Shown here: piece by piece, positions 12,233-43,745 of the stretch
Position numbering within the stretch: the stretch's first letter is position 1
Layout: each line of letters begins with the position of its first letter
Assembly: GCA_032718475.1 (NCBI GenBank)
Contig: JAUCBJ010008561.1
Coordinates: 1-43,745 of the forward strand
DNA length: 43,745 nt
Source of the DNA: Nemertoderma westbladi
Lineage: Eukaryota; Animalia; Xenacoelomorpha
Reading direction: 5' to 3'
Program-made: the position numbers and the translations under genes
Notes under the pieces: generated by a model
The model's database searches: none
What the model was told of the DNA's origin: nothing
Seen by the model: the letters and a program-made list of their open reading frames with translations, nothing else

Positions 12233-13714
12233 ATGACGACAGTGGCTACCGTAACTGCGGCCTTGGCTGCAGACGCTGCTTCATGTAGTCATGTCGAATG
12301 TGATGTTCTATCTTACCTGTGGACCTCGCATGTAAAAGGTTATACACGGGACTCTATTGTATCCATAGTTCAATCATGGCATCGTTTCACAGATGCAATG
12401 TTTAAAGAAGCGAAAAATATATTGCTGTCATTGATTCCTGGTAGCGACAGGGAGAAGAGTAAGCAATCCTTTGCAAAGTCGCGCCAATTAGGTGAGTCGT
12501 TTCGCAAGAATACCGTATGCGACATTCTGGACATCTTTGATTATGATGGGTTCATAAATCGAACTGGTAGCCTTCCTCGATTTGTACCCAGTGATTTGGC
12601 TATAATTCCGCCTTTCGCTCTCAGTCACGCCGATACTGCTGTGATGCTTCGTCAATTGAGTGTCATGCAGGACCGTCTAGCAGTAATAGAGGCGGTTTGT
12701 CTGTCTCCGGGTGGATATTCCCCTTCTACAACTTCTTCGCAACAAGGTGCGATAGCTGTGGTTCCGGTACGGGTACCGGTACCGGTAACTTCTTGTACCG
12801 GCAGCTGTAGTCAACAGTCACCCTACATCTGCAAACCTGATGACAGGCCAGTTATTTCAGTTCCTCGTAATAACACCCTTGCTAGCGGAGCTAATCGTAC
12901 CGGTGAACCTAATTCGAACCTAAACTTCAGTGCTGCCCTAGGTCATAACCCTCTGGCACCCGTATTCGTAGCTGCATCACGATCTCCTTCTCCGTTATCT
13001 CAAGCGTCGTCGGGGCCTGCTACTACCGGTAGTGGCACTGGCAGGTCTAGCTTGGTAGCCAACAGCATGTATCCGAATGTTCCACAACAGTGTGATGAAG
13101 AATTCTCAGTTCCATATTCTCAGCGTAAGCGTGCTAAGCGGCAGTTGTGCAACCAGCAGCCGTCGACGGATAACTGGGCATCCAGCAGCGGCAGGCCATC
13201 ATTTGTAAAAGGGTCCTCAACATCTACTAGTTTTCGCACAGTTCAACCTTCACGGAAGCTATTCTTAACAGGATGTCATCCTGACGTTGAAGCTGCTACA
13301 ATTACTGGATTTGTTAAAGATAAGCTCGGGTTTGATGTAATTTGCAAGAAAATTTCGTCAGACGCGGCTTCTGTTCGTTCGTTCCTGATTATTTGTTCTG
13401 ACTCCGAGCGGACATTGCTTTTGAACCCTACTATCTGGCCTCTATATGCAAGAATTAGGGACTTTGAACAGCGCAATCGTATCAATCCGAAATCGGCAAC
13501 GAATTCCGGGTTTTCTGCTAGACCTAACAGCAGCAGCAGAGAAGTTTTGGATCCACAGGTTCCTCAGGGTACCTCTGCCCCTGCCCCTGTACCCAACACT
13601 AACCCTCAAACAGATATACATGACGTCGATGTGAGCTCGGACGTGATGGAGGTTAGCCATAGAGATAGTGACAATTCTGAGCTGTTCCTTAATCTAATTG
13701 ACCCCGCAACGTGA
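12233..13714 (+). CDS. LINE ORF1 protein (N-terminal helical/coiled-coil region, low-complexity linker, C-terminal RRM-like domain)
   Basis: Open frame from 12215 with first ATG at 12233. The motifs LPRFVPSDLAIIPP and KLFLTG...SFLI...NPTIWPLYARIRDF resemble CR1/L2-group ORF1. Lies directly upstream of ORF2. Confidence 0.85.
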   Translation: MTTVATVTAALAADAASCSHVECDVLSYLWTSHVKGYTRDSIVSIVQSWHRFTDAMFKEAKNILLSLIPGSDREKSKQSFAKSRQLGESFRKNTVCDILDIFDYDGFINRTGSLPRFVPSDLAIIPPFALSHADTAVMLRQLSVMQDRLAVIEAVCLSPGGYSPSTTSSQQGAIAVVPVRVPVPVTSCTGSCSQQSPYICKPDDRPVISVPRNNTLASGANRTGEPNSNLNFSAALGHNPLAPVFVAASRSPSPLSQASSGPATTGSGTGRSSLVANSMYPNVPQQCDEEFSVPYSQRKRAKRQLCNQQPSTDNWASSSGRPSFVKGSSTSTSFRTVQPSRKLFLTGCHPDVEAATITGFVKDKLGFDVICKKISSDAASVRSFLIICSDSERTLLLNPTIWPLYARIRDFEQRNRINPKSATNSGFSARPNSSSREVLDPQVPQGTSAPAPVPNTNPQTDIHDVDVSSDVMEVSHRDSDNSELFLNLIDPAT

Positions 13715-13839
13715 TCTTGGTTCTGTTAATGTAATTCTGTGAATAACTTTTATATGTATATACACACATATTTATTTATATTTGATATTTTGCATTGATT
13801 TTATTGCGGAGATATTTATATTTATTTTTGGAAACAACT

Positions 13840-16713
13840 ATGGCATCTCTAAATAATATAAAAATTGTATCATGGAATTGCAATTCCATAAAACATCCAA
13901 CATCGCAGAGAGTCATACAAGACTATTGCAATGCTGGTTGTGATATTATATTGCTGCAAGAACTTTGTATTCCTAAGCAGGAATTATCTTTGCTGTCCCA
14001 ATTACACCCACAATACTTAGGTAGTGGGGTGTCACCAGTATGCAATTCTGCCGGTATACTGTCTGGGCGTCCTTATGGTGGTGTAGCCATCCTGTATAAC
14101 AATAAAATTTCTCATGCTGTAGAAATTTTATCATTTCATAATGAGCGCTTCATTGGTGCGGTTGTTACACTTAGTAATATGGAAAAACTATTAGTAATTA
14201 ATGTGTACATGCCATATCAGTGTGAAGATAACGAAACATCGTATATAAGTTGTCTCGGTGATATTAAATCTATTTTTGAGGATGTAGCATTTACTTACTT
14301 GTGTGTAATAGGTGACTTCAATGCTCACCCTGACCCTAGCCGGTCATTTCACTTGTTTTTAACAGAATGGTGCAATAATGAAGGTCTACAAATATTTGAT
14401 ATCGGTAATTTACCATCCGACACATTTACGTATATAAGTGATGCTCACTTGACCACCTCATGGCTTGACCATGTTGTTTGCACTCCCTCTACAGGTAGTT
14501 TAATTGAATCCCTTTCAGTGGACTATGTATCTTCCATAAGGGATCACATGCCTATAATTGTTAATTTTTCTGTAACTGTGTGCGTCAGCCCCATTACACA
14601 GCCTGGCCCTGGTCGGCCCAACCCACACCAGCCCACTAAATTGAACTGGGCAGCCACCTCTCCAGAGTCCATTGATACTTTCAAGTATCGTGTGAAAACT
14701 AATCTTGATATGTATATAATTAACAACAATTTATTAAACTGTATGGACACTAAATGTTCGGTTCATAATGACGATATTGATATCTTGTACAATAGTGTTG
14801 TATCAATTTTAACTACTTGTGCTGTAGAATGTATTAAATCGAATCCCACTGTAAATTGTAACTCCACCCAGCGCCACATTCCAGGCTGGAATGACCTTGT
14901 GGAGGAGAAACACAGTGAGGCTCGATTAAAATTCCTGTGTTGGAGATCTTCTGGGTCTCCAAGGCAGGGGCAAATATTTTCTGATTACCTAAGTGCTAAG
15001 GCTAATTTTAAGCGTTCCCTTAGGGCGTGTAAACGTGAAGAGGATAATATCCGTAACGGTAAAATAGCGAATTCACTATTGTCTAGTGGTGCATCATCAA
15101 CCACGTTTTGGTCCAATGTGCACAAATGTTGTTCTAGTACAACTGTATTGCCTAATAAAGTGGGCGATGCTGTTGGTCCCAATCAAATTAGCGATCTGTG
15201 GAAGTCTCATTTTCACACTCTACTGAACTGCGTTAAGGACGATTCCGATAAGGAATTCGTTTCTGAAAAACTTATTGGAACTTCATTTCGTGCAGATTGC
15301 ATTGTTAGTAATAATGAAATTTTTGAAGCTATTAATAGCCTATCTATTGGAAAGGCTGTTGGCCCAGACGGGTTACAAGCTGAGCACTTGATTAATGGCT
15401 GCTGTGTATCGTTACTTGATATTTTGGCTGTGCTTATTAATAGTATTTTTGTTCATGGTTATATGCCATCACTCATGATGGAATCCATTATTGTTCCACT
15501 TATCAAAGATAAAACAGGTGACCATACTTGTAAGGACAATTACAGGGGCATTTCAATTGCAACAGGTTTGAGCAAACTTGTAGAAAGCGTTATTTTAGCG
15601 CGTAGTTTAGCGCTAATGTATACAACTGATAACCAGTTTGGTTTCAAATCCAAACTTGGAACGGAATATTGTATTTACACCCTTAAGGAGATCATAAACT
15701 TTTACCTTTCTAGCAACACTCCAGTATATGTGTGTATGCTTGACGCCAGTAAAGCGTTTGACCGTGTCAACCACTTTACCCTACTCCGTAAACTTATATT
15801 ACGAGGTTTTCCATTATATATAGTACGGCTAATTTTGTTTTGGTATCGATCCCAACTCATGTATGTTATGTGGGGTGGTATTTTTTCTGCCAAATTTATG
15901 GTGACTAATGGAACGAAACAGGGAGGTATACTCTCGCCGTTGCTGTATAATGTATATATTGACGATCTGAGTAAGGAGCTCACAGAGGCTGGTGTTGGTT
16001 GTTATGTCGACTGCATCAGATTGAACCATATATGTTATGCTGATGATATGTGCCTGATTTCGAATTCTATTTTCGGTTTACAACGGTTAATTGACATTGC
16101 CGTTAAATATGCTGATATTAATTCAATTATATTTAACACGAAAAAGTCTAAGTGTTTATACTTCCTCCCGAAAGGATCGTCAGTTATTCGGCGCCCTAAT
16201 GTGTTTCTGTATGGTGTTGCTATTGAAATTGTAAATAAATTCAATTATTTAGGCCATATTTTACATTGTACAATGGATGATGACTATGATATTCTTAACC
16301 AAACTTGTAAGTTATATTCTAGAGCTAATTTTATTATTAGGAAATTTAGCGGCTGTGCAAATAATGTAAAAGTGCAATTGTTCCGTGCATTCTGTACGCC
16401 GATTTATTGTAATGCCTTATGGGCTAGGCGTAATTACTCAGATCGTATCCACAGTAAACTTAAAGTAGCCTATAATAATTGTGCAAGGCGATTATTTGGG
16501 TTACCAAGAGTTACTGATGGACAGACATCGAGTATTTCACTAGCGCTCGGTATGTTGAATATACCATTATTTATACATATCAGATATAGATCAGTAATCA
16601 GTCTATTTGATCGTATAAACAAGATAGATAATACACTATTGCAAGCATTAAATACGGCAGTAGTTAAGATATCACGAATACGTGAAATGAAAGACCCTGT
16701 ATTTCTAACCTAA
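13840..16713 (+). CDS. LINE ORF2: APE endonuclease + reverse transcriptase
   Basis: APE motifs SWNCN, LLQE, GGVAIL, GDFN, WLDH, DHMP; RT motifs QFGF, LDASKAFDRV, GTKQGGILSPLLY, YADD, YLG. ATG at 13840. Confidence 0.97.
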   Translation: MASLNNIKIVSWNCNSIKHPTSQRVIQDYCNAGCDIILLQELCIPKQELSLLSQLHPQYLGSGVSPVCNSAGILSGRPYGGVAILYNNKISHAVEILSFHNERFIGAVVTLSNMEKLLVINVYMPYQCEDNETSYISCLGDIKSIFEDVAFTYLCVIGDFNAHPDPSRSFHLFLTEWCNNEGLQIFDIGNLPSDTFTYISDAHLTTSWLDHVVCTPSTGSLIESLSVDYVSSIRDHMPIIVNFSVTVCVSPITQPGPGRPNPHQPTKLNWAATSPESIDTFKYRVKTNLDMYIINNNLLNCMDTKCSVHNDDIDILYNSVVSILTTCAVECIKSNPTVNCNSTQRHIPGWNDLVEEKHSEARLKFLCWRSSGSPRQGQIFSDYLSAKANFKRSLRACKREEDNIRNGKIANSLLSSGASSTTFWSNVHKCCSSTTVLPNKVGDAVGPNQISDLWKSHFHTLLNCVKDDSDKEFVSEKLIGTSFRADCIVSNNEIFEAINSLSIGKAVGPDGLQAEHLINGCCVSLLDILAVLINSIFVHGYMPSLMMESIIVPLIKDKTGDHTCKDNYRGISIATGLSKLVESVILARSLALMYTTDNQFGFKSKLGTEYCIYTLKEIINFYLSSNTPVYVCMLDASKAFDRVNHFTLLRKLILRGFPLYIVRLILFWYRSQLMYVMWGGIFSAKFMVTNGTKQGGILSPLLYNVYIDDLSKELTEAGVGCYVDCIRLNHICYADDMCLISNSIFGLQRLIDIAVKYADINSIIFNTKKSKCLYFLPKGSSVIRRPNVFLYGVAIEIVNKFNYLGHILHCTMDDDYDILNQTCKLYSRANFIIRKFSGCANNVKVQLFRAFCTPIYCNALWARRNYSDRIHSKLKVAYNNCARRLFGLPRVTDGQTSSISLALGMLNIPLFIHIRYRSVISLFDRINKIDNTLLQALNTAVVKISRIREMKDPVFLT

Positions 16714-16904: not shown

Positions 16905-17784
16905 CATCCTGTTATGGTTCTAAAGTCTACACTCAAACATACATCCTACAATCATACACCCTGTTATGGTTCTAAAGTCTACACTCAAACATACATCCTA
17001 TAATCTACAATCATACACCCTGTTATGGTTCTAAATTCTACACTCAAACATACATCCTACAATCATTCACCCTGTTATGGTTCTAAAGTCTACACTCAAA
17101 CATACATCCTACAATCATACATCCTGTTATGGTTCTAAAGTCTACACTCAAACATACTTCCTACAATCTACAATCATACACCCTGTTATGGTTCTAAAGT
17201 CTACACTCAAACATACATCCTACAATCTACAATCATACATCCTGTTATGGTTCTAAAGTCTACACTCAAACATACATCCTACAATCTACAATCATACATC
17301 CTGTTATGGTTCTAAAGTCTACACTCAAACATACATCCTACAATCATACATCCTGTTATGGTTCTAAAGTCTACACTCAAACATACATCCTACAATCATA
17401 CACCCTGTTATGGTTCTAAAGTCTACACTCAAACATACATCCTACAATCATACACCCTGTTATGGTTCTAAAGTCTACACTCAAACATACATCCTATAAT
17501 CTACAATCATACACCCTGTTATGGTTCTAAATTCTACACTCAAACATACATCCTACAATCATTCACCCTGTTATGGTTCTAAAGTCTACACTCAAACATA
17601 CATCCTACAATCATACATCCTGTTATGGTTCTAAAGTCTACACTCAAACATACTTCCTACAATCTACAATCATACATCCTGTTATGGTTCTAAAGTCTAC
17701 ACTCAAACATACATCCTACAATCATACACCCTGTTATGGTTCTAAAGTCTACACTCAAACATACATCCTACAATCATACATCCT
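16905..17784. repeat. 52-bp satellite, distal block
   Basis: Same unit, with the same diagnostic variants (aaattct, attcacc, cctataatc) as 10750-12060. Confidence 0.99.
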
Positions 17785-19452: not shown

Positions 19453-19573
19453 TTACTTAATTATTTCCTCTAAGAGGCATAGTTTATCAAGTGGTCTTTT
19501 GTAAACTCCCAAGGAGGTTTTTACTTCAACTGATCTAATTAACCCCACATGATCAGGGTATACTTGCGTTATA
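19453..19573 (-). pseudogene. C-terminal remnant of BEL/Pao Pol (DUF5641-like)
   Basis: Manual translation ITQVYPDHVGLIRSVEVKTSLGVYKRPLDKLCLLEEIIK* matches the VRSV.VKT..G...RP..KL motif that ends BEL Pol. Confidence 0.8.
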
Positions 19574-21465
19574 TACTATTTATTTCATTGTCACTTACAG
19601 ATAGGATGTACAATACTGTACCGTAGGCCACTTTAGTGGCGTCTGGAAAAATATGTAACTGGTAGTTGATTGGACCCGAATGGACGGGGATGTACATCCT
19701 AGGTATTTCCAGTTCGCTGAACAAAGGGAGTTGATCTCGCCACTTCATCCATTGACGTGTTGTATCTGGTGGGAGTGGGGTATCACAGTCTAATTCCATT
19801 GACCACATTTTTGCTATAACTAATCGACCTGCTATGATTAAAGGTAAGATAAAGTTAATGGGATCGTACGATCGTTTGCGAACATAACCCTTCACGACAT
19901 AATCGTCTATTTTTTGTTGATAAAGGGCACGGATTTGTGGCTGACCATGTAGCTGACGGATTAAATATGCGAAACGAGATTTTGCCATATTATAATTGAC
20001 ACCACTTGATACTACAGTGGGGTCACCTGCAATGGAGATAGAAGATCTATCATTAGGGTTCATGGATGTAATACCCGATAGTGCAGAATTAGGAGCATTT
20101 CTATCGAAATATACTGGACCATTGTGTCCCCCCATGGCATATTGTACATGATTTGAATTAGGAGCATTTACTGCAGACTGACCAACAGAGATTGAACTAG
20201 CAGTTACAGATGCTACAGGATTACATAAAAATCCAGGAGTCTCACTGTATTGATACTGTAGGCCAGTGGTACTATATGGGAAATATTGTCCCTCATCATA
20301 TAAGTTTTGTCCTCCCATGGCAAATGATGGGACGTGAGATATATTATGGGTATTGTATATCGCAGAAGAGGCAAACTTGGGGCGCCTCTCTTGTGCAGAT
20401 TGACCCGGAACATTGATGGGACATGATGGGACACTTTGACCTATGGGGTGGGAAGGGTGGGGGAATTGTCCCCCTATGGGGTATGTTGAAACATATATAG
20501 ATGGACATGTAAGGCTATTTACATCAAGAGATGTAAATGCCACAGGCTCCTCTTGACTATATTGTTCCCGGCTGGTAGTAAGATAGGATGGCACATATTG
20601 TCCTCCAGAAGTATAGGATGAATAAATGCATTGTCCGGCCGAGGAACTTCTAGGATATCTCTGAGAATACTGACTTAAGGAAGATGCAGTATTAAAAGGC
20701 GATGTTGGGTGTATAAAGAGACCAGTTGTACAAAAATTACCTAGTGGGATAATTTCAGAAACTCTACTATTAATTAGCGCACTAGTGGGTCTTATAGGAG
20801 ACGTAAGAGAAAAAATTGGAAGTTGAGATGACACTACTGACGTTGTTTCTACAGTGACAGGGTAGGAATCAGATTGACTAGACTGCAGATTATTTTGTGC
20901 TGATTCATAGGAATCTGAGGCACTCACATTAACAGGTAGGCCCGTGGTTGCTATGGCAACAGGGTCGACTGGAGACTCTGATTGGTTCCTTGTATTAACA
21001 GTCACATTATTGTTAAGATTACTTTCAGTTTGTACACCAATTGGTACGTCATACGTGGGAGATCTTTTTGGTGATTGTAATAGCGCAGGAGCTACATAAT
21101 CTGCTTCTGCTTCTCCAAATTCAGGTGATTTCAACTCTAAAGCTTCTTCAAGTGCTGCAAGTGCAAGAGCATCGCGTAGGCCACGTTCCTTTGCCAAGCG
21201 AGTAATTTCTTTCTGTTGCCGCTCTGATTTTTGTAATATCAATGTGTCAGCCTGATCTGCCTGAGCAGCTGCTCCTGACTGCTCGAGCTGTAGCAGGAGT
21301 AATTTTCGCTTGACTTTGGCACGATGAACTCTAACTGATGCACTCGTCGAGGCTCGAGAATGTGCTGTAGAACCAGAGTGAGTTGAAATTATTCGATTAC
21401 GTTTGAGCTCGCCAACTTGCAATTGTTCATGAGATGATACATACTGTGGAACATCTGAAGACACA
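19569..21465 (-). pseudogene. Mosaic BEL/Pao gag-pol ORF lacking Gag core, protease, RT and integrase
   Basis: Ser-rich/coiled-coil start, then the pre-RT motif NYNMAKSRF...Y...IDDYVVKGY joined directly to the Pao RNase H/A17 motifs YDPI...W...IPR...LHIFPDATKVAYG. The first ~34 aa of the listed ORF are TIR read-through. Confidence 0.8.
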
Positions 21466-21896
21466 AGTAGTAGGGTCTTCCTCCTCTCTGTGACAGTTGG
21501 ACCTAACTGACACCCATTGGGTGTCATATGACACCCAATTATCACCCTATGGGTGTCATTGGGTGTCATTGGCGCCAGACTGTCTGGGTGACACCTCCCA
21601 ATTAGGCTAATTAGACCCTAATTGACAGGTGTCATCAATTAATTAGTATAATTAAACCCTAACAGGTGTCATATGACTCCTAATTAGGGTTTAATTGATT
21701 ATCCTAATTAATCAGACTGATTAGCGCCCTGACACACAATGGGTCATCAGTGATGTCCAACTGTCGCAGAGAAGGGGGAAGAGGGTGTCATAAGTGACAC
21801 CGCAGCTCTTTTATTCATTAATACCTATTTATTTATATTTAATTTTAATTAATTATTTGTACTTTATTTTACTTTATTTATTCATTTGTACTTTAT
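21466..21896 (+). repeat. Left terminal inverted repeat
   Basis: Reverse complement of 27783-28213; no mismatch noticed by eye. Confidence 0.95.
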
Positions 21897-22499
21897 TTTA
21901 AATTAATTAATTGTTTATATTACTTTTACTTTATACATTGATTTCTATTTTTAGATTAATTAGTTTTTATATTACCAACGAGATCACTATGACATAATAT
22001 CTATTTTTAACTTTATAATGGCTATGGTATACGGCTCCCTACTGGCAACTATCAACTACGTTCATCGGCGGGGGGCCCCTCCTCTGCCATCATTATTCAT
22101 TAACTAGATACAACAGGCAGTGAATCTACACGTATACCCCAAGGCAAATATAAATGAGCGATCCCGTCTGTTAGCAGTCCCTTCGATGACTCACTAATAA
22201 TCCCATCGCGGCCTTGACTACAGCAAATCCCTATGTCGCCCAAGGCTAATGCTCTAGCGGCCCTCCATTGTTCCCACTATAGCCGACGTCGCTTTGTCCC
22301 TTTCCTATATCCAGGCAGCCCCTATCATAACAATGAAGCGCCTCTAATCACGCATTCCTCTCTACTAATCCCTTTCCTTTGCACCAGACCTGCTTCTGTT
22401 ATACAGCCAACTCAATATAATTAGTCAAGATGCTTACAAGAGTTTTCTAATAGATTCATCAACACGAGAAGTTGCCCTGGTAACCGCTTATGCATGAAC

Positions 22500-22620
22500 A
22501 GCCAATCAGCGGGCTTCATTTCTGCTGCTGCGCTCTGATTGGCTCATTTAAGAGACAAGGGCCTCCCCTACTAACCGAATTACTATTTAATAAGTCCCCA
22601 CCAATTTATTAGATCATTAT
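22500..22620 (+). promoter_or_regulatory. Putative Pol II promoter: two opposed CCAAT boxes, TATA-like box, Inr
   Basis: AGCCAATCAG at 22500, CTGATTGGCT at 22535, TATTTAATAA at 22584, and TCATT at 22614 about 30 bp after the TATA. Confidence 0.5.
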
Positions 22621-22741
22621 TTCAATTGCAAGTTACGATTAACATCATTTACCATTATTTTGTTTTCGAATTTAATATTATTTATTTAAGAATATTTATT
22701 TGTTATCATCAGTCAACAACCCACTTGTAGAGTTGTATTAT

Positions 22742-23552
22742 TGTCATTTCGCCGCGTTTTCGCTCATCGTCGACAACAAACTTTCCGCGTATCCACCGCG
22801 TAATATTTCAATATTTCTAATTTCCGATACCATTCCGTTCTATCGGTTGATAAACTCTCTCGTCGTCCACGTCAACCAACTTCCTCATCGCCACCGAACT
22901 TCCAAACTTCTTCTTTCCGTGAATATTTACTAACACCGTAAGTAAAATCTGCCTTCCATCTAGCTATACTTTCGACGCCGCTAGCAAACAATTTACATTT
23001 AATGTCTACCGGTACAACAGTATTGCAGTAGGCTCATTATTAATTACTGTCAGACTGCGGTGGTACCGATAGCCTAAACCGTGATCGAAGCATTCGATCA
23101 ATAGGCTTACATCCGCCTATCTGCTTACAGTATTTTTTATCTTTTTACAAATAATCATCTTATTTTTCTAGTATCATTTCGCCGTGCTATTGCTCATCGT
23201 CGACAACAAACTTTCCGCATATCCGCCGCGTAATATTCCATTATTTCTAATTTCCGATATCATTCCGTTCTATCGATTAATAAACTCTCTCGTCGTCCAC
23301 GTCAACCAACTTCTTCGCGAACATCCAAACTTCTTCTTTCCGTGAATATTTACTAATACCGTAAGTAAAATCTGCCTTCCACCATCTGACGGTACTATCG
23401 ATGCCGCTAGCAAACAATTTACATTTATTATCTACCAGTACAACAGTATTGCAGTAGGCTCACTATTAATTACTGTCAGACTGCGGTGGTACCGATAGCC
23501 TAAACCATGATCGAAGCATTCGCTCATTAGGCCTAAATGTGTCTATCTGCTT
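22742..23552 (+). repeat. ~430-bp diverged tandem duplication of an apparent non-coding exon-intron unit
   Basis: 22742-23171 aligns with 23172 onward; GTAAGT donors at 22938 and 23361; homologous ...TATTTTTCTAG acceptors ending at 23171 and 24065. Confidence 0.8.
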
Positions 23553-24072
23553 GTCTACCCAACTACCGGTACCGCATCATTCGAGTTAGCCTAGTGCCAC
23601 TGTAGTAACGATATAGACCCTACTGAACAACAATGAATACTGCAGTTTTCACTATATATCCTACTGACTAACTGAGATCTCACACAGCGATTAGCTAAGC
23701 CTATCGTTGATTTCTATTGGTTAACGCTACCGGTACGTCTGACTTGTAGCAGACTATATCACTAGCACTACTGCACTGACTGACTGCTGTTTATAGACCC
23801 TCTTTCCACGAATAATAACTGCCATCGCTATTGTGTCTTGGTTATCGCCACTATCTGACCGCTGGTACACTAACACTACCACACTAGACACTGCCGACTG
23901 TCTGCTTTATGTTTCACTGACTGATTGCTACAATACAGCAATAGGCCTAACTATACAAACACAGTATTGTTGCCTAGTAACCGATTAATATCCACTGTTT
24001 TACTTTATTTTTAGCACGTATACAGTATTTTTTATTTTTTATAAATAATCAACGTATTTTTCTAGATTCAAG

Positions 24073-24909
24073 ATGCCAAGATCAACAAATAAAGTTAGCT
24101 GTCCCATCTGCGACAAAGAGATGCGGAGTGATAATCTAAAATCCCATATTAAAACTCATTTCGTGCAATATCGATGCGACTGCTGTCCGACTTGGTCTTC
24201 GGAAAAGAAGACGCTGGTTGGCCATCTTGCTTCGTGTCCTCAGGGGGGAACAGGATTTAGTTACGTAAACGAGCCAGCCGATTGCCGCTGCGGGGATTCG
24301 CTCACCCTGTCATCCTTTTCTGAGCATGAATGCTACACTCGACTTTTTTCGCGGAAACGCAAAACTCCGACTACCTCCCACTCATCCCCCATCAACTCTA
24401 CTCCAGAACAAGTCGGCGGCGGCGGCTCCAATAATGAACCTTCAACTTCGCGAGATTCTATTTCCCCAAACAATCCATTTCAACCCCCCTCCAACGGAAG
24501 CGCACACGGACGACTGTTTACCTATAACAACGACCTCACAGAAACAAGACTCGATGCTGAATTAACATTAAACGAAAATTTTCCACACATTCAAGAACAC
24601 GTTAGTAGCCATTTACGTAGTGCCATGGGAACTTTTTTAAGAGTCTGGCTTACAATCAACATCGTAATGGAGCGTGAAACGAGCGAGGGATTTCAAATTG
24701 AATCTTTCTGTTTTAAATCTAGCGGTAACAATAATCAAATTCTAAATAATAGCGACTTTAATAACTGGTTTTCTAGCGCCGTCAATCGTATCGATCAACT
24801 GTTAAGCGTGTTTCTCTGCCTCGGCTCGGGTTGGCGCATAATAGCCATCGAGCGAATAACTATTGAGATTGCATGTTCCCAACGCAACCCCTATTTAACG
24901 GGTCAATAG
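24073..24909 (+). CDS. Zinc-finger protein fused to a domain resembling the N-terminal (GSGW) region of Polinton protein-primed PolB
   Basis: CPICDKEMRSDNLKSHIKTH (C2H2), further C/H clusters, basic RKRK, then LRVWLTINIVMER...FKS...IDQLLSVFLCLGSGWRIIAIERITIEI. Confidence 0.75.
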   Translation: MPRSTNKVSCPICDKEMRSDNLKSHIKTHFVQYRCDCCPTWSSEKKTLVGHLASCPQGGTGFSYVNEPADCRCGDSLTLSSFSEHECYTRLFSRKRKTPTTSHSSPINSTPEQVGGGGSNNEPSTSRDSISPNNPFQPPSNGSAHGRLFTYNNDLTETRLDAELTLNENFPHIQEHVSSHLRSAMGTFLRVWLTINIVMERETSEGFQIESFCFKSSGNNNQILNNSDFNNWFSSAVNRIDQLLSVFLCLGSGWRIIAIERITIEIACSQRNPYLTGQ

Positions 24910-24929
24910 GATTTAATTTTAATTTCTAG

Positions 24930-25445
24930 AATAAGAAATTGAGCATCAAAATAGAATTAACCAATAAACAGTTTACCGGAAAAAACATTGCCAAATTTGA
25001 ACTAGAGAAAATTTCACAGCAAATTACAGGTCAAAGATGCTTAAAACCAAACATGTTTATCTACAAAGGTGACGATTCAACTATAATGCTATTTCCCAGC
25101 GGCGCAGTAACAATTGTAGGCCTGTGCAATAATTTAGCTAGTGAATTGCTTTATTTAAAACAAACTATCGGTTTGCAATTACAAAATTTGAAACTTAATA
25201 CCGAAACACGAACTATTATTTTTCCAAGTGTTAATTTTAAATTATTAATGAAAAAATGTGGACATCATACAATTAATAATAAAGCAATATTTATTAGCTA
25301 TACCCCTGAATTATTTTGCGCGATTAGAATATATATAGGACGTGCATATTTCAGTGTATTTCATAGTAATAAAATTGTTTCCATGTGTCCTGCCGGTGAA
25401 TTCCCCGGATCATTATCTATTTTACAAACTTTATTATTAAATTAG
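24930..25445 (+). CDS. Divergent TATA-binding-protein-like ORF, probably a spliced 3' exon
   Basis: TIMLFPSGAVTIVG, SYTPELFCAI and FSVFHSNKIV mirror the TBP repeat motifs LIFxSGKxVxTG and SYEPELFPGL. The frame opens right after TTTCTAG (24929) with no ATG until codon ~42. Confidence 0.7.
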   Translation, partial: NKKLSIKIELTNKQFTGKNIAKFELEKISQQITGQRCLKPNMFIYKGDDSTIMLFPSGAVTIVGLCNNLASELLYLKQTIGLQLQNLKLNTETRTIIFPSVNFKLLMKKCGHHTINNKAIFISYTPELFCAIRIYIGRAYFSVFHSNKIVSMCPAGEFPGSLSILQTLLLN

Positions 25446-25487
25446 TTTATTTACTATGGTATACATGAAAGTTTACTATATTATTTA

Positions 25488-26010
25488 TTTTGTGTTGGTT
25501 TTTATTTTTCCGTGAGTAGGGTTTGAATCCATGACCATCCGTGTTACCTACTTTTTATAATTGCATTAGTAGGACTCGAACCCTGGTTTAACTTATTTTG
25601 TGTTGGTTTTATAATGGTCGCGAGTAGGGATTGAACCCATGACCTTCTGTTTATTTTCCATAAAACGGGATATGAATAGGGATCGAACCTGTGAGCATAT
25701 GTTTTTCCTAATTTATGTTTAGTTTAGGTACTCTAGTTATTTTATGTTTAACTTATTTTGTGTTGGTTGTATATTGGTCGCGAGTAGGGATTGAACCTAT
25801 GGCCTCCTGTTTATTTTCCATAAAACGGGATATGACTAGGGATCGAACATGTGACCACCTGTTTATCCTATTTTATGTTTAGTTTAGGTACTCTAGTTAT
25901 TCTATGTTTAACTTATTTTGTGTTGGTTTTATATTGGTCGCGGAGTAGGGATTGAACCCGTGACCATCTGTTTATCCTATTTTGTGTTTAGTTTAGTTAC
26001 TCTATGTTAA
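25488..26010 (-). repeat. Degenerate tandem repeats (~160 bp period) carrying about seven Pol III B-box/T-arm motifs
   Basis: Plus-strand GGGATTGAACC, GGGATCGAACC and GGACTCGAACC read GGTTCRAnnCC on the minus strand, near 25520, 25572, 25628, 25680, 25788, 25840 and 25949. Confidence 0.75.
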
Positions 26011-26370
26011 AGTGAATTTTCACATTATATTTATGTTAAATGATAAATTTATGCTACAATTATTATTTATATTATAAAAACAGAAATATTCGAGTTATAT
26101 TGCATTATATATTTTTCATTGAAGTGGAATACTTTAGATGTTGTTTGCGAGGGATATTTGAATGGTGAGTATAACTATCCTTGAGAGCTAGTGCGACGTT
26201 ATCTCACTATGGATGGGCTTTACCACTGTACTCGCACCTGAAAGGTTAGCTGTGGTGTATTAGTTACGCTTAGCATTAGAGAATCCGTCCGTATCACCGA
26301 CTAGACAGCGAATCTGGCAACCCAGTTTTTGTTCTAGAGGCTTCAGTTTGTTGTAAATCAGGGCGTTAGG

Positions 26371-27053
26371 CACTGAGGCATAGACTATGACTCACTGAGG
26401 CATAGACTATGCCTCACTGAGGCATAGACTATGCCTCACTGGGGCACTGAGGCATAGACTATGACTCACTGAGGCATAGACTATGCCTCACTGAGGCACT
26501 GAGGCATAGACTATGACTCACTGAGGCACTGAGGCATAGAATGTGACTCACTGAGGCATAGACTATGACTCACTGAGGCATAGACTATGCCTCAGTGAGG
26601 CATAGACTATGACTCACTGAGGCATAGGCTATGCCTCAGTGAGGCATAGACTATGACTCACTGAGGCATAGACTATGTCTCACTGAGGCATAGACTATGC
26701 CTCACTGCCTCAGTGAGGCATAGACTATGCCTCACTGAGGCACTGAGGCATAGTCTATGCCTCACTGAGGCATAGTCTATGCCTCACTGAGGCATAGACT
26801 ATGACTCACTGAGGCATAGTCTATGCCTCACTGAGGCATAGATCTATGCCTCAGTGAGGCATAGACTATGCCTCACTGAGGCACTGAGGCATAGACTATG
26901 CCTCACTGAGGCACTGAGGCATAGACTATGCCTCACTGAGGCATAGTCTATGCCTCAGTGAGGCAGTGAGTCATAGTCTATGCCTCACTGAGGCATAGTC
27001 TATGCCTCAGTGAGGCATAGTCTATGCCTCAGTGCCTCAGTGAGGCATAGTCT
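26371..27053. repeat. 22-bp self-complementary minisatellite
   Basis: Unit CACTGAGGCATAGACTATGCCT, built from overlapping palindromes TATGCCTCA-c-TGAGGCATA and TGAGGCATAG-a-CTATGCCTCA. Confidence 0.95.
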
Positions 27054-27116
27054 GTGTCAGGTCTTAAATGTGAGTCTTACAAATTCGAACGTCAACGAAC
27101 AAATTCGAAGGTTACT

Positions 27117-27200
27117 GTTCCACCTTGGTGTAGTGGTTGCGTTGAATTCACATCTCCCGTATGTCATGGGTTCGATCCCCGCATGAACCAGGGCAGTTTT
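27117..27200 (+). ncRNA. tRNA-like Pol III unit (pseudo-tRNA or SINE head)
   Basis: A box TGGTGTAGTGG, B box GGTTCGATCCC, GTTC/GAAC end pairing, CCA at 27188-27190 and TTTT at 27197. The anticodon arm pairs poorly. Confidence 0.55.
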
Positions 27201-27274
27201 CGTTTGGTTAGCAATAGGCCTAACGTTGCAAAATGCTGTATTATTGCCTAGTAACCAATTCATGGCTACCGTAT

Positions 27275-27570
27275 GGTTTTCACTTTAAGACATTTCGCCC
27301 TCTAGCGGCAGACTGGGGAACTTCAGACTACTCTGTGACCCTGCAAAAGATATAGCCTATGCCGTAATAGATGCCGATTGGGGGGTCAAATTAAGTAATA
27401 ATATATCTAAATAAGCCTCAAACATCTTGCCTCATGGCTCGCCCCTTAGAACTCTTAAGCAATATAACTTCATGGTTTTGCGGATTGTAAATAACAAAGC
27501 TAGAGAAGATGTTAATTTTTAAACAATACGCCCTCTAGCGGCAGACTATGGAACTGCAGACGGCTGGACA
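27275..27570. repeat. Two copies of the Helitron-internal ~146-bp repeat family inside the TIR element
   Basis: GACATTTCGCCCTCTAGCGGCAGACTGGGGAACT...AAGATATAGCCTATGC and GATTGTAAATAACAAAG...GAAGATGTTAA match 33700-34800. Confidence 0.85.
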
Positions 27571-27782
27571 TAGATAAGAGTAATTAGTAATCAGAGCTGT
27601 CACGAGAGGGGGGCGGGGCGCTTGGATACAACTATTATTAATAAGCTGTTGCTTGGTTAAAGCTAATTGGGGGTCAAAGGTCAAAGGTCAACGATAAAGC
27701 TGTCTGGATATAGATAAGAGTAATTAGTTACCAGTAAGGGAGCTGTATACCCATAAAGTACAAATGAATAATTAATATAAAT

Positions 27783-28213
27783 ATAAAGTACAAATGAATA
27801 AATAAAGTAAAATAAAGTACAAATAATTAATTAAAATTAAATATAAATAAATAGGTATTAATGAATAAAAGAGCTGCGGTGTCACTTATGACACCCTCTT
27901 CCCCCTTCTCTGCGACAGTTGGACATCACTGATGACCCATTGTGTGTCAGGGCGCTAATCAGTCTGATTAATTAGGATAATCAATTAAACCCTAATTAGG
28001 AGTCATATGACACCTGTTAGGGTTTAATTATACTAATTAATTGATGACACCTGTCAATTAGGGTCTAATTAGCCTAATTGGGAGGTGTCACCCAGACAGT
28101 CTGGCGCCAATGACACCCAATGACACCCATAGGGTGATAATTGGGTGTCATATGACACCCAATGGGTGTCAGTTAGGTCCAACTGTCACAGAGAGGAGGA
28201 AGACCCTACTACT
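27783..28213 (-). repeat. Right terminal inverted repeat
   Basis: Reverse complement of 21466-21896; ends CCCTACTACT. Confidence 0.95.
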
Positions 28214-28215
28214 CA

Positions 28216-29976
28216 TACCCTTTCGTTGATACTCAGCTGATTGCTCCCTGGGCAGAAGGTCGAGGTTTCTTCCGCACTATGTATGCTAATACGCCTAGCA
28301 ACATTACCAAGGTGCAACGAACTTCCATTGGACATCTTGCCTTTCAGGAATACGGATGGAATTTCAAAGTCGGAAATCCCATTAACTATCAACAAGTATA
28401 CGGAGATCATTATTCTCGATTGTACTTTGATGGACCATTAACCGCACCTGGCGCCGTGTATAGCTTCATGAGTGTTCCACTCCGTCCCTCCTTAGCTATA
28501 TACACGATCTTTGAAAACACCGCACTTGCCGGTTGGCTAGCCGATGTGTGCAGTCGTACTATACACGCCCATCCATTAATACTTGGGACCAAACTCGCTA
28601 AGCTAGATGAACATAATAAATTCATCCGTTTCGAATGTTTCCGGCGATTTTTAACCCCGTTCCGCAACGTGGATAGCCAATTTAAAGACCGCGCTTTGAC
28701 CAAGCTCAGCCTAAGAGACTCAGCTGCAGAGAAGTTGGATAGCGCTGGATTCGCCGTTTTCCAAGAGATTTGTATATCGAACTTACACTCCTCTGTTATA
28801 CAAAGACCTCGAATCCCCACAGGTTATTCTGTCGTGGAAATTCAGACAATAGGTCCACCTGAAGAGACAGACGCGCCCACTTCAGCTATGCACTTGGAAG
28901 ACGAACCAATATGTCTAGAATCTGAAGAGATTCAGCCTATCGCGCCCCGGACCAGCGACAACGATTACATCATAGAATGGTATCAAGGTCCACAGTGTCT
29001 CATTGCGTACGATTATCGACATGCCAACTATGTTTCTAGGCAACGTTGTCGGTTATGCGCATCGAGAGACCACGATACGCCCATGGACACCAACGTCCGC
29101 TGTTCCTATTTCCAAGAACAACCGACTATGGAAATTTATTGCGCATATTGCAGACTCAATAACTTGCATATCTTTGCGGTTTGCCCTCAATTTATGACTC
29201 AATGTCACCATTGTCAACTAAAGGGACATGCCAGTTTCGATTGCCCTTTTAATCACGATTTGGAAAGCGTAGATGAAATGATCACACTACGTTACATCAG
29301 AGCTTGGGAAGCGAACGCTGATTTACATTGTGATTCGCGCCATCGCTATTATCCCGGACGCGCTTACGAAGGAGTTTATGCGTTCCATCCTTATCTATTC
29401 GCTTCGGTTGAACAGAAATCACGCATATCAAGTTACGAGCTACTGAAGCGCGTCGGAGAATGTATTTCAACCAAATTCGTACGCAAATTTCTCAGGAGTG
29501 TTAATCCTAGCGACCTTCATTCCTATAACTTAATCAATTATATCCGTCAGGATCCGGACTATGGAGACTTGTTTATTAACTCACACCCCGAGTTACAGGA
29601 AGTATATCGACGGCCTTACGAATACCGAGCCCGCGAACGCGAGTTGGAAAGAACCATTAAACCCCGGAGGTTTCTAACTGCCTATGGTCCACCCATGGCC
29701 CTCGTTCAGACCACTCGTAAAGGACCCGTAAGAGCGGCTGTCTTAAAACGAGCTCTCAAAGCCGTTAGACCCCTCTCCCCGGACGTTGATGTCAATCAAC
29801 CCGGTACTTCGACTGGCGGATACACCGACCATAATCCTACACCCTCTGATGCAATCATATTGCACCCTTCACCCAGGAGTTATAGCCCTCCTTGTAAAGT
29901 GGCTCGCCCCAAAGAGAAAAAGACTCTGGCTAGCTTTAAAAAACTGCGTAAACGCCGTCCGCGCAAGAAAGACTAA
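28216..29976 (+). CDS. Accessory Cys/His-rich zinc-knuckle protein with basic C-terminus; 5'-truncated
   Basis: Frame is open back to the TIR junction (first ATG 28279). CHHCQLKGHASFDC is CX2CX4HX4C; also CAYCRLNNLHIFAVC and CRLCASRDH; ends KKLRKRRPRKKD. The protein is conserved with the second copy despite many third-position changes. Confidence 0.85.
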   Translation, partial: YPFVDTQLIAPWAEGRGFFRTMYANTPSNITKVQRTSIGHLAFQEYGWNFKVGNPINYQQVYGDHYSRLYFDGPLTAPGAVYSFMSVPLRPSLAIYTIFENTALAGWLADVCSRTIHAHPLILGTKLAKLDEHNKFIRFECFRRFLTPFRNVDSQFKDRALTKLSLRDSAAEKLDSAGFAVFQEICISNLHSSVIQRPRIPTGYSVVEIQTIGPPEETDAPTSAMHLEDEPICLESEEIQPIAPRTSDNDYIIEWYQGPQCLIAYDYRHANYVSRQRCRLCASRDHDTPMDTNVRCSYFQEQPTMEIYCAYCRLNNLHIFAVCPQFMTQCHHCQLKGHASFDCPFNHDLESVDEMITLRYIRAWEANADLHCDSRHRYYPGRAYEGVYAFHPYLFASVEQKSRISSYELLKRVGECISTKFVRKFLRSVNPSDLHSYNLINYIRQDPDYGDLFINSHPELQEVYRRPYEYRARERELERTIKPRRFLTAYGPPMALVQTTRKGPVRAAVLKRALKAVRPLSPDVDVNQPGTSTGGYTDHNPTPSDAIILHPSPRSYSPPCKVARPKEKKTLASFKKLRKRRPRKKD

Positions 29977-31311: not shown

Positions 31312-32640
31312 CCCAAGTATAAGCAAAAAAGCATTAGAAACAACGAAATGGGAGAAGGATTTCACTTGAGACATTTCACCCTCTAGCGGCAGACTGAGAA
31401 ATTGCAGATTGGTCAGAGTTTTCCACAAACACGCAGTCTATGGTGTAGTAGACCTCTGACAAGTATAAGCCTAAAAGCATTAGAAACAACGAAACGGGAT
31501 AAGGTTTTCACTTTCAGACATTTCGCCCCCTAGCGGCCGAATGGAGAACTGCAGTTTGTTCGGCGTCTTACCTAGACACACACCCTATGTTGTACAACAC
31601 ATCTGGCAAGTGTCAGCCTGAAATCATATTATTAACGAAATGGGATAAGGTTTTCACTTTCAGACATTTGGCCCCCAAGCGGTTGGATAAATGCAGACTG
31701 GTTCTAGCTCCTCCCCAAACACACAGTCTATGGTATAGTAGACCTCTGCCAAGTATCAGCAAAAAAGCATTATAAACAATGAAATGCATAAAGGTTTTCA
31801 CTTTCAGACATTGCGCCCCCTAGCGGCAGACAGAGCTATTGCAGATTGGTCTTAGTTCTCCACAAACACGCAGTCTTTGATGTAGTAAACCTCCGACAAG
31901 TATCAGCCTAAAAACATTATAAACATCAAAATGGGATAAGGTTTTCACGTTCAGACATTTCGCCCCCCAGCGGCCGAATAGAGAACTGCAGGTTGTTCGG
32001 CGTCCTCTCCAGACACACACCCTATGGTGTAATACACATCTGCCATGTGTCAGCCTAAAAGCATTATTAATAACGAAATGGGATAAGGTTTTCACTTTCA
32101 GACATTTGGCCCCCTAGCGGTAGACTGGAGAGATGCAGACTGGTTTTAGCTCCTCCCCAAACAGGCAGTCTTGGTGTAGTAGACCTCTGCCAAGTATCAG
32201 CAAAAAAGCAGTATAAACAACGAAATGGGTGAAGGTTTTCACTTTCAGACATTGCGCCTCCTACCGGCAGACAGAGGAATTTCAGATTATTCAGAGTTCT
32301 CTACAAACACGCAGTCTATGGTGTAGTCGACTTCTGCCAAGAATCAGCAAAAAAGCATTATAAACAACGAAATGGGATAAGGTTTTCACTTTCAGATATT
32401 TCTCCCCCTAGCGGCAGACTGGGGAATTGCAGATTGCTCAGCATCCTCCGAAAACACACAGCCTATGGTATAGTAGACCTCTGCCACAGATCAGCTAAAA
32501 GGCATTAATAATAACGAAATGGGAGAAGGTTTTCCGTTTCTGACATTTCGCCCCCTAGCGGCAGACTGGAGAACTGCAGATTGATCAGTGTCTTCCAAAA
32601 CACACAGTCTATGGTCAGGAACGTATCTGCAAAGTATCAT
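31312..32640. repeat. ~146-bp tandem repeat array (about 9 units, trimeric ~437-bp substructure)
   Basis: TTTTCACTTTCAGACATTTCGCCCCCTAGCGGCAGA recurs at about 31372, 31519, 31664, 31808, 31955, 32102, 32249, 32396 and 32543. Confidence 0.9.
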
Positions 32641-33121: not shown

Positions 33122-35616
33122 CTAGAAAGCCCGTGGCCCTTCGGGCCACGTCTTTCTAGTTCACAAGCCTATTCACCATTCCAAACATTAGATTAATTAA
33201 TTAACTTGACTTAACAAAACGTCACATGGTTGAGTGTTCTCTCAAACAAAGCCTAAAAGCATTTTTAATAACTAAATGTGAGAATGTTTTCACTTTTCAG
33301 ACATTTCGCACCCTCTACCAGTATACTGGAGAACTGCAGACTGGTTAGCATCCGCCCCAAACACACAGCCTATGGTGTAGTATACGTTTCCCAAGTATAA
33401 AAAAAAGGGCCACAGCTTTCTAGTGCACGTGCAGATGATATATGAATATGTGTGGGAGATTCGAGAACTGCATACGGAATAGACACCATCATTAAATAAA
33501 ACACCACCCCCATAAGATATAACTGTCAAGTTTCAACTTTAGGCAGATTGTAAATAACAAAATTTCCAGAAAATGATCACTTTCAGATCCACCCTCTACC
33601 TGCGGACTGGTGAAATGCAGACGGCGCTGCAGTTTGGTAAAGATGGGGTTTATGGTGAAGTAAAATAATGCCTGCCTTTCAAGTTTCAGCTTAAACAGAT
33701 TGTAAATAACAAAATTGGTGTAGATGTTCACATTCAGACATTTCACCCTCTAGCGGTAGACTGAAGAACTGTGGACGACTCTGGGACTCCGTAAAGATAC
33801 AGAATATGCTGTAGTAGATTCCTGCCAAGTTCCAGCTCAATAGGATTAAAAAGAACCAAATGGGATGAGGTGTTCACTATCAGATATGTCGCCCTCTAGC
33901 GGCAGATGGGGGGACTGTATACAACTCTGTGACTCCGTAAAGGTACAGCCTATGCTGTAGTAGATGCCTACCAAGTTTCAGTCTAAACCGTTAGTAAATA
34001 ACAAAGTTGGAGAAGATGTTAACTTTCAGACATTTCACCCTCTAGCGGTAGACTGGGGAAGTGAATAGGATTCTGCAACCCCGTAAAGATACAGCCTATG
34101 ATGTAGTAGATACCAACCAAGTTTCAGCTCAAAATGATTAAAAAGAACCAAATGGGATGAGGTTTTCACTATCAGACAATTCGCCCTCTAGCGGCTGACT
34201 GTGGAACTGTAGACGACTCTACTACTCCGCAAAGATATAGCCTATGCTATAGTAGATGCCTACCAAGTTTCAGTCTAAAAGGATTGTAAATAACAAAGTT
34301 GGAGGAGATGTTAACTTTCATACATTTCACCCTCTAGCGGCAGACGCGGGTAATGTAGACAACTCTGCGCGACTCAGTAAAGATATAGCCTATGCTGTAG
34401 TAGATGCCTACCAAGTTCAGTCTAAATGGATTATAAATAACAAAGTTGGAGAAGATGTTAACTTTCAGACATTTCGCCCTCTAGCGGTAGACTGGGGAAT
34501 TGTAGACGACTCTGCGACTCAGTAAAGATACAGCCTATGCTGTAGTAGATGCCTACCAAGTTTCAGTCTAAACGGATTGTAAATAACAAAGTTGGAGAAG
34601 ATGTTAACTCTCAGACATTTAGCCCTCTAACGGTAGACTGGGGAACTGTGGACAACTCAGTGACTCAGGAAATATACAGCCTATGCTGCAGTATATAGCT
34701 ACCAAGTTTCAGCTCAAAAGCATTAAAAACAACCCAATGAGATCAGGTTTTCACTATCGGACAATTCGCCCTCTAGCGGCAGATGGGGAAACTTCAGACG
34801 GCTCTGAGTATTACGTTGCAACGAGTTAGGGCAAGACCTATCTAACGAGCTATAGTAAGCGAGATTTCATCGAGATTAGATGTATAATATTAGATAAAAT
34901 AATAATACAGTAAGTATAGGCCTACAGAAATAATTATTTTACTTTTAATATTCATAACAGTAAAACAAAAATGTTATAAACCTCTCCTTCCATGCAGCCA
35001 ATGATTGAGAAAGCAGAATTACACTTGAGCAGTTCGCAACAGACAACCCAAACCCACCCCAATCAACACTACAGCCTGGCTTGCTCCTTATCTGTGCCCA
35101 GCTAGCTGCGATTTCAATAATTACCTTACGTTGCTATGATACAGAAAAAAATCCTTCCCTATTCACTACAGCACTAAGAATAGGCCAATTCGATCGTGCT
35201 TGGCGAATATGACATATTTATACACTATTTGGTTTTTAATCAATAAATAATCATACATATTTATATTAAACACTCGAATAAAATAAAAACTTTGTGAGAA
35301 TGGGACACGGCGAATCTACCCATGTTAATTTTATACCAGGTGGGATAAATGTTAGCCCTCTAAATAATTAATTACCGATAGAAGAACCGAAATAATTCGA
35401 TAAATTTCGCCCGAAAATCACGAAAATCGCCCTCTAGCGGCAGACGGGCGAACTTCAGACGACTCTGAGTATTACGTTGCAACGAGTTAGAGCGAGACCT
35501 TTCTAACGAGCTATAGCAAGCGAGATTTCATCGAGATGGGTTCGATTGTATAGCCGATGACAAACACACAGACAGACAGACTGACTGACAGACAATCGAT
35601 ATTTATATATATTAGA
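33122..35616 (-). mobile_element. Non-autonomous Helitron copy A (composite)
   Basis: 5' TCTAATATATATAAAT plus TGTC repeats at 35616; 3' hairpin CGTGGCCC-GAA-GGGCCACG followed by CTAG ending at 33122. Confidence 0.75.
33520..34810. repeat. ~146-bp tandem repeat array, second subfamily
   Basis: AACTTTCAGACATTTCGCCCTCTAGCGG recurs at about 33738, 33885, 34030, 34177, 34322, 34469, 34616 and 34761. Confidence 0.9.
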
Positions 35617-43100: not shown

Positions 43101-43745
43101 CAACCGCCGAAGCGGGAGTCGCCAACATAGTAGCGGGCTGACGCGGGACGACGGGAGACAAATTATTGATTTCTCTCTCTGCTATCTGGACAGGGGTGTT
43201 TGCATGGGCTGTTCCACCGGGTACAGGCAGTGTAGTGCTATGTAAAGGGAATTTAGAGTTAAGCTCTGGAAGTGTAGGGGTCTCTAGCACAGAAGTGACT
43301 TTGGGAATTACAGGCCTAATTATTTCAGGTTCATCGACTATAGTAGGGAGTCTTTTGACCTGGATAAATTGTTCTATAGGTTCTGCACTACCTAAATCTG
43401 TGCTAGTTAGCTGTCTTTTAACAGCTGGGGGCAAATCAGGCAATTTACGACGGTAATATGTTTTTCTACGCCTACTTAGATGAGATCTATCTCCTCCGCC
43501 TTCAGGGTCGGTAGTATCGCCTTCCTCCGATGATGTGTACCCCTGGCGCTTGGGAGTAGATTTTCTCATCATCTGCATTTGATTAGCAGTAAACTGTTTA
43601 TTTATACTGTCTTGTGTCTCTTGCAGATTCTCCAACTCCAGTTGGGTAGTCTGCTCAGATGCTCTCCTTTCTGCTTCTGCCACTGCCTTTGCCACCTTTC
43701 TTTCTGCTTCTGCTTCTGCCGCCGCTGCTTTCTTTCTGCTTCTGC
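40110..43745 (-). CDS. gag: BEL/Pao Gag-protease polyprotein, split by a 1-bp frameshift near 42652; RT and integrase absent
   Basis: KFNGD..KWLPF...LSNGEKLRFL; CALCDGPHRLSAC, CYNCLRRGHQRRTC, CAKCGAKHHSLLH; ALLDSGS; ILIG; AVRTRVGW..TGP; then QWRH....KPADIASRG...W..G. The frame is open to the window end. Confidence 0.9.
42361..42895. repeat. 267/268-bp tandem duplication inside gag
   Basis: 42361-42627 and 42628-42895 are near identical, with TCA microhomology at the junction; the second copy has one extra C. Confidence 0.95.

Follow-up and report, generated by a model that had tools for sequence, protein, structure and literature searches.

How genes are switched on in Polintons/Mavericks, the widespread virus-like elements of animal genomes, is poorly known, and the locus described here raises the question of whether such an element can carry a TBP of its own. 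The stretch of DNA analysed (hereafter the window) comprises 43,745 nucleotides of contig JAUCBJ010008561.1 from Nemertoderma westbladi. An original prediction, made from the sequence, placed within it a highly divergent TBP-like gene on a mobile element, acting as an element-specific transcription factor or a TBP decoy. A TBP encoded by the element and altered on its DNA face would offer a testable mechanism, in which a factor private to the element reads a viral promoter code; if this is true, control of the vTBP type would not be confined to herpesviruses and giant viruses but would reach elements of about 15–25 kb.

The frame was found where it had been predicted, together with both of the half-repeat motifs that had been quoted for it:

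24930–25445, forward strand: TBP-like open frame, 171 codons from stop to stop, both half-repeat motifs inside

The description of this frame as intact holds in that it is free of stops, but there is no ATG until codon 42 (at 25053). The ATG-started ORF inside it is only 130 aa long; since strand 1 and N12 lie outside this ORF, it was not accepted as the complete protein. On its 5′ side, the frame abuts an acceptor-like TTTCTAG, the preceding letters being TTTAATTTCTAG.

The strong divergence claimed for the encoded protein was borne out, with 13–25% identity to 68 TBPs. PF00352 was the sole Pfam family matched at E ≤ 5 (E = 0.0026, residues 16–65); the proposed HMM match was thereby obtained at a relaxed threshold, but its score of 18 bits lies under the gathering cut-off of 22.9 bits. 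By alignment-free features, 30 of 30 Atlas neighbours are PF00352 clusters (top score 0.95), at a recognition of 1835, and the tool calls high scores weak under 2300. A TBP profile was then available from 81 distinct sequences, query excluded, whose loci came from viral and metagenome contigs and were retained by motif and length (82 of 93, L020–L112); this reference set is nearly all archaeal-type and includes neither TRF2 nor a Polinton TBP. The frame scored 9.2 bits against the profile, with 1 of 5000 shuffles higher, and ranked first of the 1139 six-frame segments of the window (E = 0.046). In an alignment of eight sequences, it keeps 11 of the 19 columns invariant in seven TBPs, a number reached by 1 of 400 shuffles, and hhalign paired it with TBP at E = 1.9e-4 (probability 48%). 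The order and spacing of its two half-repeat motifs are those of TBP. Scoring by a global PSSM yielded z = 2.7, a value that 6 of 400 shuffles equalled or exceeded, and no internal sequence repeat was found between the two halves of the protein. NCBIfam, PHROGs and a PDB sequence search returned no TBP match, and sequence relatives were found neither in a 5.8-billion word search or a 1.84-billion representative search, nor among viral and metagenome contigs, nor by exact look-up; 14 Polinton-type viral loci, covered to at most 10 kb either side of the match, likewise showed no TBP-like ORF. At the level of sequence, the TBP likeness is backed by several partly independent methods, none of which points elsewhere.

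Structure prediction gave the expected saddle under one of two regimes. A single-sequence AlphaFold model failed (pLDDT 31) and was unusable, whereas a model guided by an alignment of 68 TBPs formed a two-lobed saddle (pLDDT 85, pTM 0.64), which leans towards TBP because it was built on a TBP alignment. Compared with PDB, the guided model matched solely TBP-containing entries down to rank 43 (TM 0.64–0.76), and among its top matches in BFVD, named viral TBPs stand at ranks 3, 10, and 11. The likeness might still be due to chance, or to a distant TBP-like alpha/beta domain with another job, as the sub-threshold Pfam score, low Atlas recognition, z of 2.7, missing internal repeat, and failed single-sequence fold would allow; we consider this very improbable, given that partly independent methods all give TBP and nothing else, and that both motifs occur in the right order and spacing. 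A TBP fold of the encoded protein is, in our judgement, very probable.

Residues were compared by transferring yeast numbering to the frame via a eukaryote-type TBP (L020) and Table 1 of PMC12529657. All four intercalating Phe (F43, F55, F129, and F144), for which a check had been proposed, align with TBP, as do both base-reading Asn (N12 and N86), and two alignments agree on this; overall identity to TBPs is about 20%, yet the DNA-kinking core is retained. In yeast numbering, N69, F99, F116, G125, N159, E188, L189, F190, F207, and V213 are kept, and the changes are V71Q, L114M, V122T, T124V, V161K, E186T, P191C, L205S, T215M, and G216C. Thirteen positions of helix H2 are missing in yeast 126–157. 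The traits of a canonical host TBP (hydrophobic DNA face, P191, acidic TFIIB stirrup, and full H2) were thus not found in the frame. We take E186 to be a TFIIB contact, and the H2 surface is presumably the contact for Brf1. The TFIIB contacts named in the accessible text of PMC12529657 are E184 and E188.

Set beside cellular TBP (PF00352; PDB 1ytb, 1cdw, and 1mp9), the encoded protein is predicted to share the two-lobed saddle, keeps the core contacts, and has a SYTPELF that resembles the eukaryote-type YEPELF; it differs in its identity of about 20%, the absence of an N-terminal tail, an H2 shorter by about 13 residues, a polar DNA face, the lack of P191 and E186, and its carriage on a mobile element. 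Because the four Phe and two Asn are kept, the predicted protein should still bind the minor groove. It should also prefer a non-canonical box, since the neighbouring residues are polar or changed, as at three positions of KSHV ORF24: where ORF24 has N485, N520, and S560, the frame has T, K, and S at the V122, V161, and L205 equivalents (PMC12529657, in the part accessible). In both proteins the four Phe are kept and acidic TFIIB contacts are at least partly lost, although the frame keeps E188 and is without the P191 proline that ORF24 needs. ORF24 is moreover described as a 752-aa protein that works with five partners and has domains for Pol II binding and for additional DNA binding (PMC12529657); the frame is a lone core of 171 codons, in which the additional Pol II-binding and C-terminal DNA-binding domains of the herpesvirus-type vTBP are absent. 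Contacts with host TFIID-type partners are probably reduced, given that about 13 residues of H2 and one glutamate of the stirrup are missing. The parallel between these polar changes of the DNA face and the herpesvirus vTBP suggests an element-specific promoter factor. TRF2/TBPL1 is likewise a divergent animal relative of TBP; as far as the consulted sections of PMC10005294 go, TRF2 has lost the intercalating Phe and does not bind TATA. The frame differs in keeping all four, so a TRF2 origin is disfavoured.

The same residues bear on the decoy reading, in which the protein would occupy TATA-like DNA or titrate TFIIB, NC2, or Mot1 and so damp host transcription. Binding without productive assembly could follow from DNA-kinking residues and E188/L189 that are kept in a basic protein (pI 9.6) with a short H2 and no E186. 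A decoy for host promoters should, however, retain the canonical hydrophobic DNA face, and this face has changed; characterised viral TBPs, in what is available of PMC12529657, act positively on viral promoters. We regard a decoy or inhibitor as quite improbable, and an element-specific transcription factor, as read from residue patterns, as the best reading.

For the surrounding element, read contigs were drawn from four DNA runs (X1–X4) of one organism, covering three samples and three studies; one run may be the source of the window. The element is 6,748 bp long, with terminal inverted repeats (TIRs) of 445 bp that are 99.55% identical and AGTAGT ends, and both of its ends are supported by read contigs:

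21466–21912, forward strand: left TIR, beginning AGTAGTAG; a BEL/Pao ORF is broken by it; at 21466, X1, X2, and X4 contigs pass from the flank into other sequence
27767–28213, reverse strand: right TIR, ending CTACTACT; 25 X1 contigs have loose letters before 28214
24073–24909, forward strand: 278-aa ORF with a weak C2H2 finger followed by a match to the N-terminus of Polinton-type polymerase; GSGW loop; ends at the junction described below

Polintons end in AG...CT with AGT repeats, and the element has such ends on long TIRs. Polinton insertions also carry a 6-bp target-site duplication; none was found at the element, where GACACA stands on the left versus CATACC on the right. The flanks are two different repeats; this and the missing 6-bp duplication point to copies having recombined, to a deletion next to the element, or to a join made in assembly. 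The CpG observed/expected ratio is 0.27 in the TIR (21466–21912) versus 0.97–1.27 in the interior (21913–26100), and within each TIR its terminal sequence recurs as a 53-nt inverted copy (85%). In X1, the bins holding the TIRs (21335–22068 and 27574–28307) are about 10 times deeper than the interior; two ends per copy would not account for this, and the TIR may be common to many shorter derivatives.

The Polinton assignment also draws on the 278-aa ORF, residues 156–267 of which match positions 135–244 of a 1262-position polymerase profile (23.2 bits, E = 6.8e-10; best of 500 shuffles, 7.5), with hhalign giving E = 1.4e-5 against the polymerase N-terminus. The profile comprises 11 full-length polymerase-like proteins from 14 Polinton-type viral loci; these have no Pfam or PDB PolB match, so that they count as polymerases by the fetching motif and their neighbours only, and DJR capsid, A32 ATPase, and rve integrase genes occur in the reference contigs (three loci sampled). 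When 120 ORFs of the 14 loci were compared with 147 frames, only the 278-aa ORF fell under E = 0.01. Its matched domain is likely a terminal-protein domain. Such a domain is described in the available portion of PMC11161782 with a Ser adjoining Gly, and the G-S-G loop that closes the matched domain would fit that description. A coral polinton with a separate terminal-protein gene is reported in the same portion of that paper (PMC11161782), and on this precedent the 278-aa ORF may be a natural stand-alone gene and not a stump. Database searches found no sequence relatives of this ORF, and its Atlas neighbours are arthropod-rich clusters with no common Pfam family. The mobile-element setting claimed for the frame is supported, in the form of a Polinton context, by the TIRs and by the polymerase N-terminal homology of this upstream ORF.

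Long TIRs and a terminal-protein-like N-terminal polymerase domain are thus shared with Polintons/Mavericks, as these appear in the consulted parts of PMC6431247 and PMC11161782, where they measure 15–25 kb, compared with 6.7 kb here. A further difference is that no polymerase core, integrase, ATPase, protease, capsid, or target-site duplication was detected in the element. A complete protein-primed PolB was not found in the window, profile positions 135–244 being the only part present. Element frames of at least 50 aa gave no Pfam match to integrase, packaging ATPase, protease, or capsid genes; no RNA polymerase gene was detected in the element, and no virion or late genes in this copy, so that it offers no late promoters in which the matching box of a herpesvirus-type vTBP could be sought. 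A STEEP1 match of 22676–22930 (E = 0.0036, under the cut-off) was taken as chance.

Read contigs indicate where the missing part of this copy may have been lost:

24906/24907, no strand: junction at which other copies differ on both sides; likely internal deletion point

Loose contig ends lie behind 24906 in X2 and X3 and before 24907 in X1–X4. In X3, a 614-letter contig aligns left of the junction over just 47 letters, and before the junction a 229-letter contig shows 181 foreign letters. The joined form seen in the window is bridged without differences in X1 (depth 245, near the flank depth) and in X3 (depth 47). A form with a one-base indel just before the TBP-like frame is deeper in X1 (848 of 1093), and in X3 the same indel marks the loose-end contig. 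Because other copies carry different sequence at 24906/24907, the window copy is likely internally deleted, and the lost segment is likely the rest of the polymerase region, as far as the read contigs indicate; alternatively, the two loose ends could come from different subfamilies. X3 contigs about 89% alike to the terminal-protein-like ORF, over 24459–24853, show that diverged subfamilies exist in the same organism.

Single contigs on the TBP-like frame reach depths of 1597–2032 in X1 and 1843–2122 in X4, against 143–232 (X1) and about 200 (X4) for left-flank contigs; the frame is about 8–10 times deeper, which we read as multi-copy only, since depth is no copy number according to the tool's own warning. 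No indels are listed inside the frame versus three in its flanks, and the seven substitutions listed within it comprise four silent changes, three residue-changing ones, and no stops. Four silent changes of seven are too few to show selection, and the copies may simply be young. This point matters for a reading in which the gene is truly TBP-derived but a decaying passenger across the lineage, its frame open only because the copies are young. Such a passenger would suit the absence of a 5′ ATG, the incompleteness of this element copy, the recent insertion implied by TIRs at 99.55%, and the three residue-changing substitutions; we find it improbable nonetheless, because keeping six key DNA contacts at about 20% identity needs long selection after divergence. 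The contig counts, in addition, imply about two further unlisted differences within 24924–24956 of the other form, so the missing start may be peculiar to the window copy.

Returning to the element-specific factor, we hold it somewhat better than an even bet that the frame encodes a minimal TBP-fold protein of a Polinton/Maverick (adintovirus-type) element, serving in intact copies as that element's own promoter-selective TBP alongside host Pol II. In such copies, the predicted TBP would bind and bend the AT-rich core promoters of the element, and the bound promoters would then lead to transcription of element genes by host RNA polymerase II. The window copy would have lost the internal segment between the terminal-protein-like ORF and the TBP-like frame, would need an intact relative for mobility, and may yield no TBP-like protein unless a leader exon provides the start; its incompleteness makes it ill suited to tests of the mechanism.

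Virus-encoded TBPs are already known, in beta- and gamma-herpesviruses (PMC12529657) among others, and what the frame adds is a very divergent, sequence-orphan gene with a predicted TBP fold in a Polinton-derived element. The closest setting is that of MELD viruses with adintovirus-like PolB, for which a figure legend carries the label "TBP" (Starrett et al., 2021, PMC8502044; preprint 10.1101/697771). Here too a TBP-like gene sits in a Polinton-like genome; in the parts of that paper at hand, the label stands in the legend only, within the section on non-animal datasets and with no residue or function analysis, and one supplement gave no match for TBP (PMC8502044). Mirusviruses encode TBP according to the accessible text of PMC10132985, and the Nucleocytoviricota and Mirusviricota proteins resemble the predicted protein as divergent virus-encoded TBP folds, with structural matches at TM up to about 0.69. 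These viruses differ in having, as described in that same text, far larger genomes with RNA polymerase subunits of their own (PMC10132985), none of which was detected in the element. Within the viral collection, contig IMGVR_UViG_3300042568_001250 (L012/L020) carries a eukaryote-type TBP of 186 aa, and loci L004/L008 a divergent TBP of about 242 aa that is extended at its C-terminus. In the literature library searched, no paper analysing a TBP of animal Polintons was found.

The sequence around the frame contains several repeats and candidate signals:

24021–24065, forward strand: T-rich 46-nt motif containing TATAAAT; its TTTCTAG end lies 7 nt upstream of the start codon of the 278-aa ORF; resembles a promoter or a splice acceptor
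23126–23171, forward strand: the 46-nt motif again, at 91% identity to the other copy (E = 4e-11), followed by a 57-codon frame that has no ATG
22744–23552, no strand: tandem duplication of 426 bp (1.9 copies, 89%), which matched no protein convincingly
25485–26009, reverse strand: 160-bp tandem repeat with additional incomplete units, directly 3′ of the TBP-like frame; five B-box matches
26106–27573, no strand: stretch of high read depth that likely consists of nested host repeats; contains a 22-bp palindromic array, pieces of a 146-bp satellite, and, around 27120–27185, an A/B-box-like head

The TATAAAT of the first motif lies 33 nt upstream of the ATG at 24073, and the two 46-nt motifs may be read as small promoters or as splice acceptors; the TBP-like frame has only the TTTCTAG end in common with them. 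TAATTA occurs 20 times in the element (14 in the TIRs) versus 17 times in the other 37 kb, and it is not a TATA box. ATAGGCCTAA was weak as an element motif, its 8 matches being reached by 2 of 100 shuffles. A 22-bp palindrome-rich array at 26371–27050, present in both orientations, can form long hairpins, and the Rfam miRNA- and snoRNA-type matches in the element were rejected because they lie on this array and all fall under the gathering score.

Six B-box matches occur in the window, all within the element, compared with 0.13 expected. The five in or beside the 160-bp tandem repeat (minus strand) are not independent, and the sixth is likely in a nested host repeat, since its stretch has an X1 depth of 128,000–198,000 versus about 5,000 in the interior (about 30-fold). 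The Pol III-type and TAATTA signals noted in the original prediction are present, the B-boxes being real and TAATTA frequent in the TIRs, but no result of the analysis links either of them to the protein. In a Pol III role, the B-box repeats would recruit TFIIIC, and the element TBP would replace host TBP in TFIIIB to yield VA-like RNAs. The confinement of all six boxes to the element, with five at most about 520 bp from the stop codon, is the attraction of this idea. We rate it as highly improbable: five boxes are copies in or beside a single tandem repeat; by eye, they resemble tRNA 3′ halves with no A box; no tRNA or known Pol III RNA was called; and the H2 surface, presumably the one that Brf1 contacts, is shortened.

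A wider, joint reading builds on the element-specific Pol II factor, and as a whole we consider it rather unlikely. Transcription in animal Polintons would be controlled by a switch of their own, whose TBP, smaller than any viral one so far, would consist of the saddle alone; with its rewired, herpesvirus-like polar DNA face, this TBP would read an element-specific box and recruit host Pol II. The start codon of its message would be gained by splicing or trans-splicing onto the acceptor abutting the frame. Shortened, non-autonomous copies would retain the TIRs, the terminal-protein gene, and the TBP, and could supply products or compete in trans, like defective interfering virus genomes.

The rest of the window is rich in repeats, including a 52-bp satellite, a LINE, BEL/Pao pieces, and further satellites. 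The 52-bp satellite (133 to about 12000 and 17005–17784) has more than 200 copies with a strong C-over-G skew, and between its blocks lies the LINE (12233–16713, forward strand), with ORFs of 493 aa (no Pfam match) and 957 aa (endonuclease and reverse transcriptase domains). Arrays of a 146/147-bp satellite occupy 31313–32615 and 33673–34806, and pieces of it also occur inside the element at 27272–27565. An unassigned element is present in two inverted copies (28177–29976, forward, and 37039–38487, reverse) that are about 83–89% alike; its Cys/His-rich ORF of about 600 aa has no firm Pfam match and was not found by identity in the protein collection, and a depth of 190,000–560,000 on 28308–29775 in X1 and X2 marks it as a very abundant family. 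BEL/Pao pieces with Peptidase_A17 and DUF1759 lie on the reverse strand at 19569–21465, where the left TIR breaks the first of them, and at 40110–43578, a region that also contains a 268-bp duplication (42358–42895).
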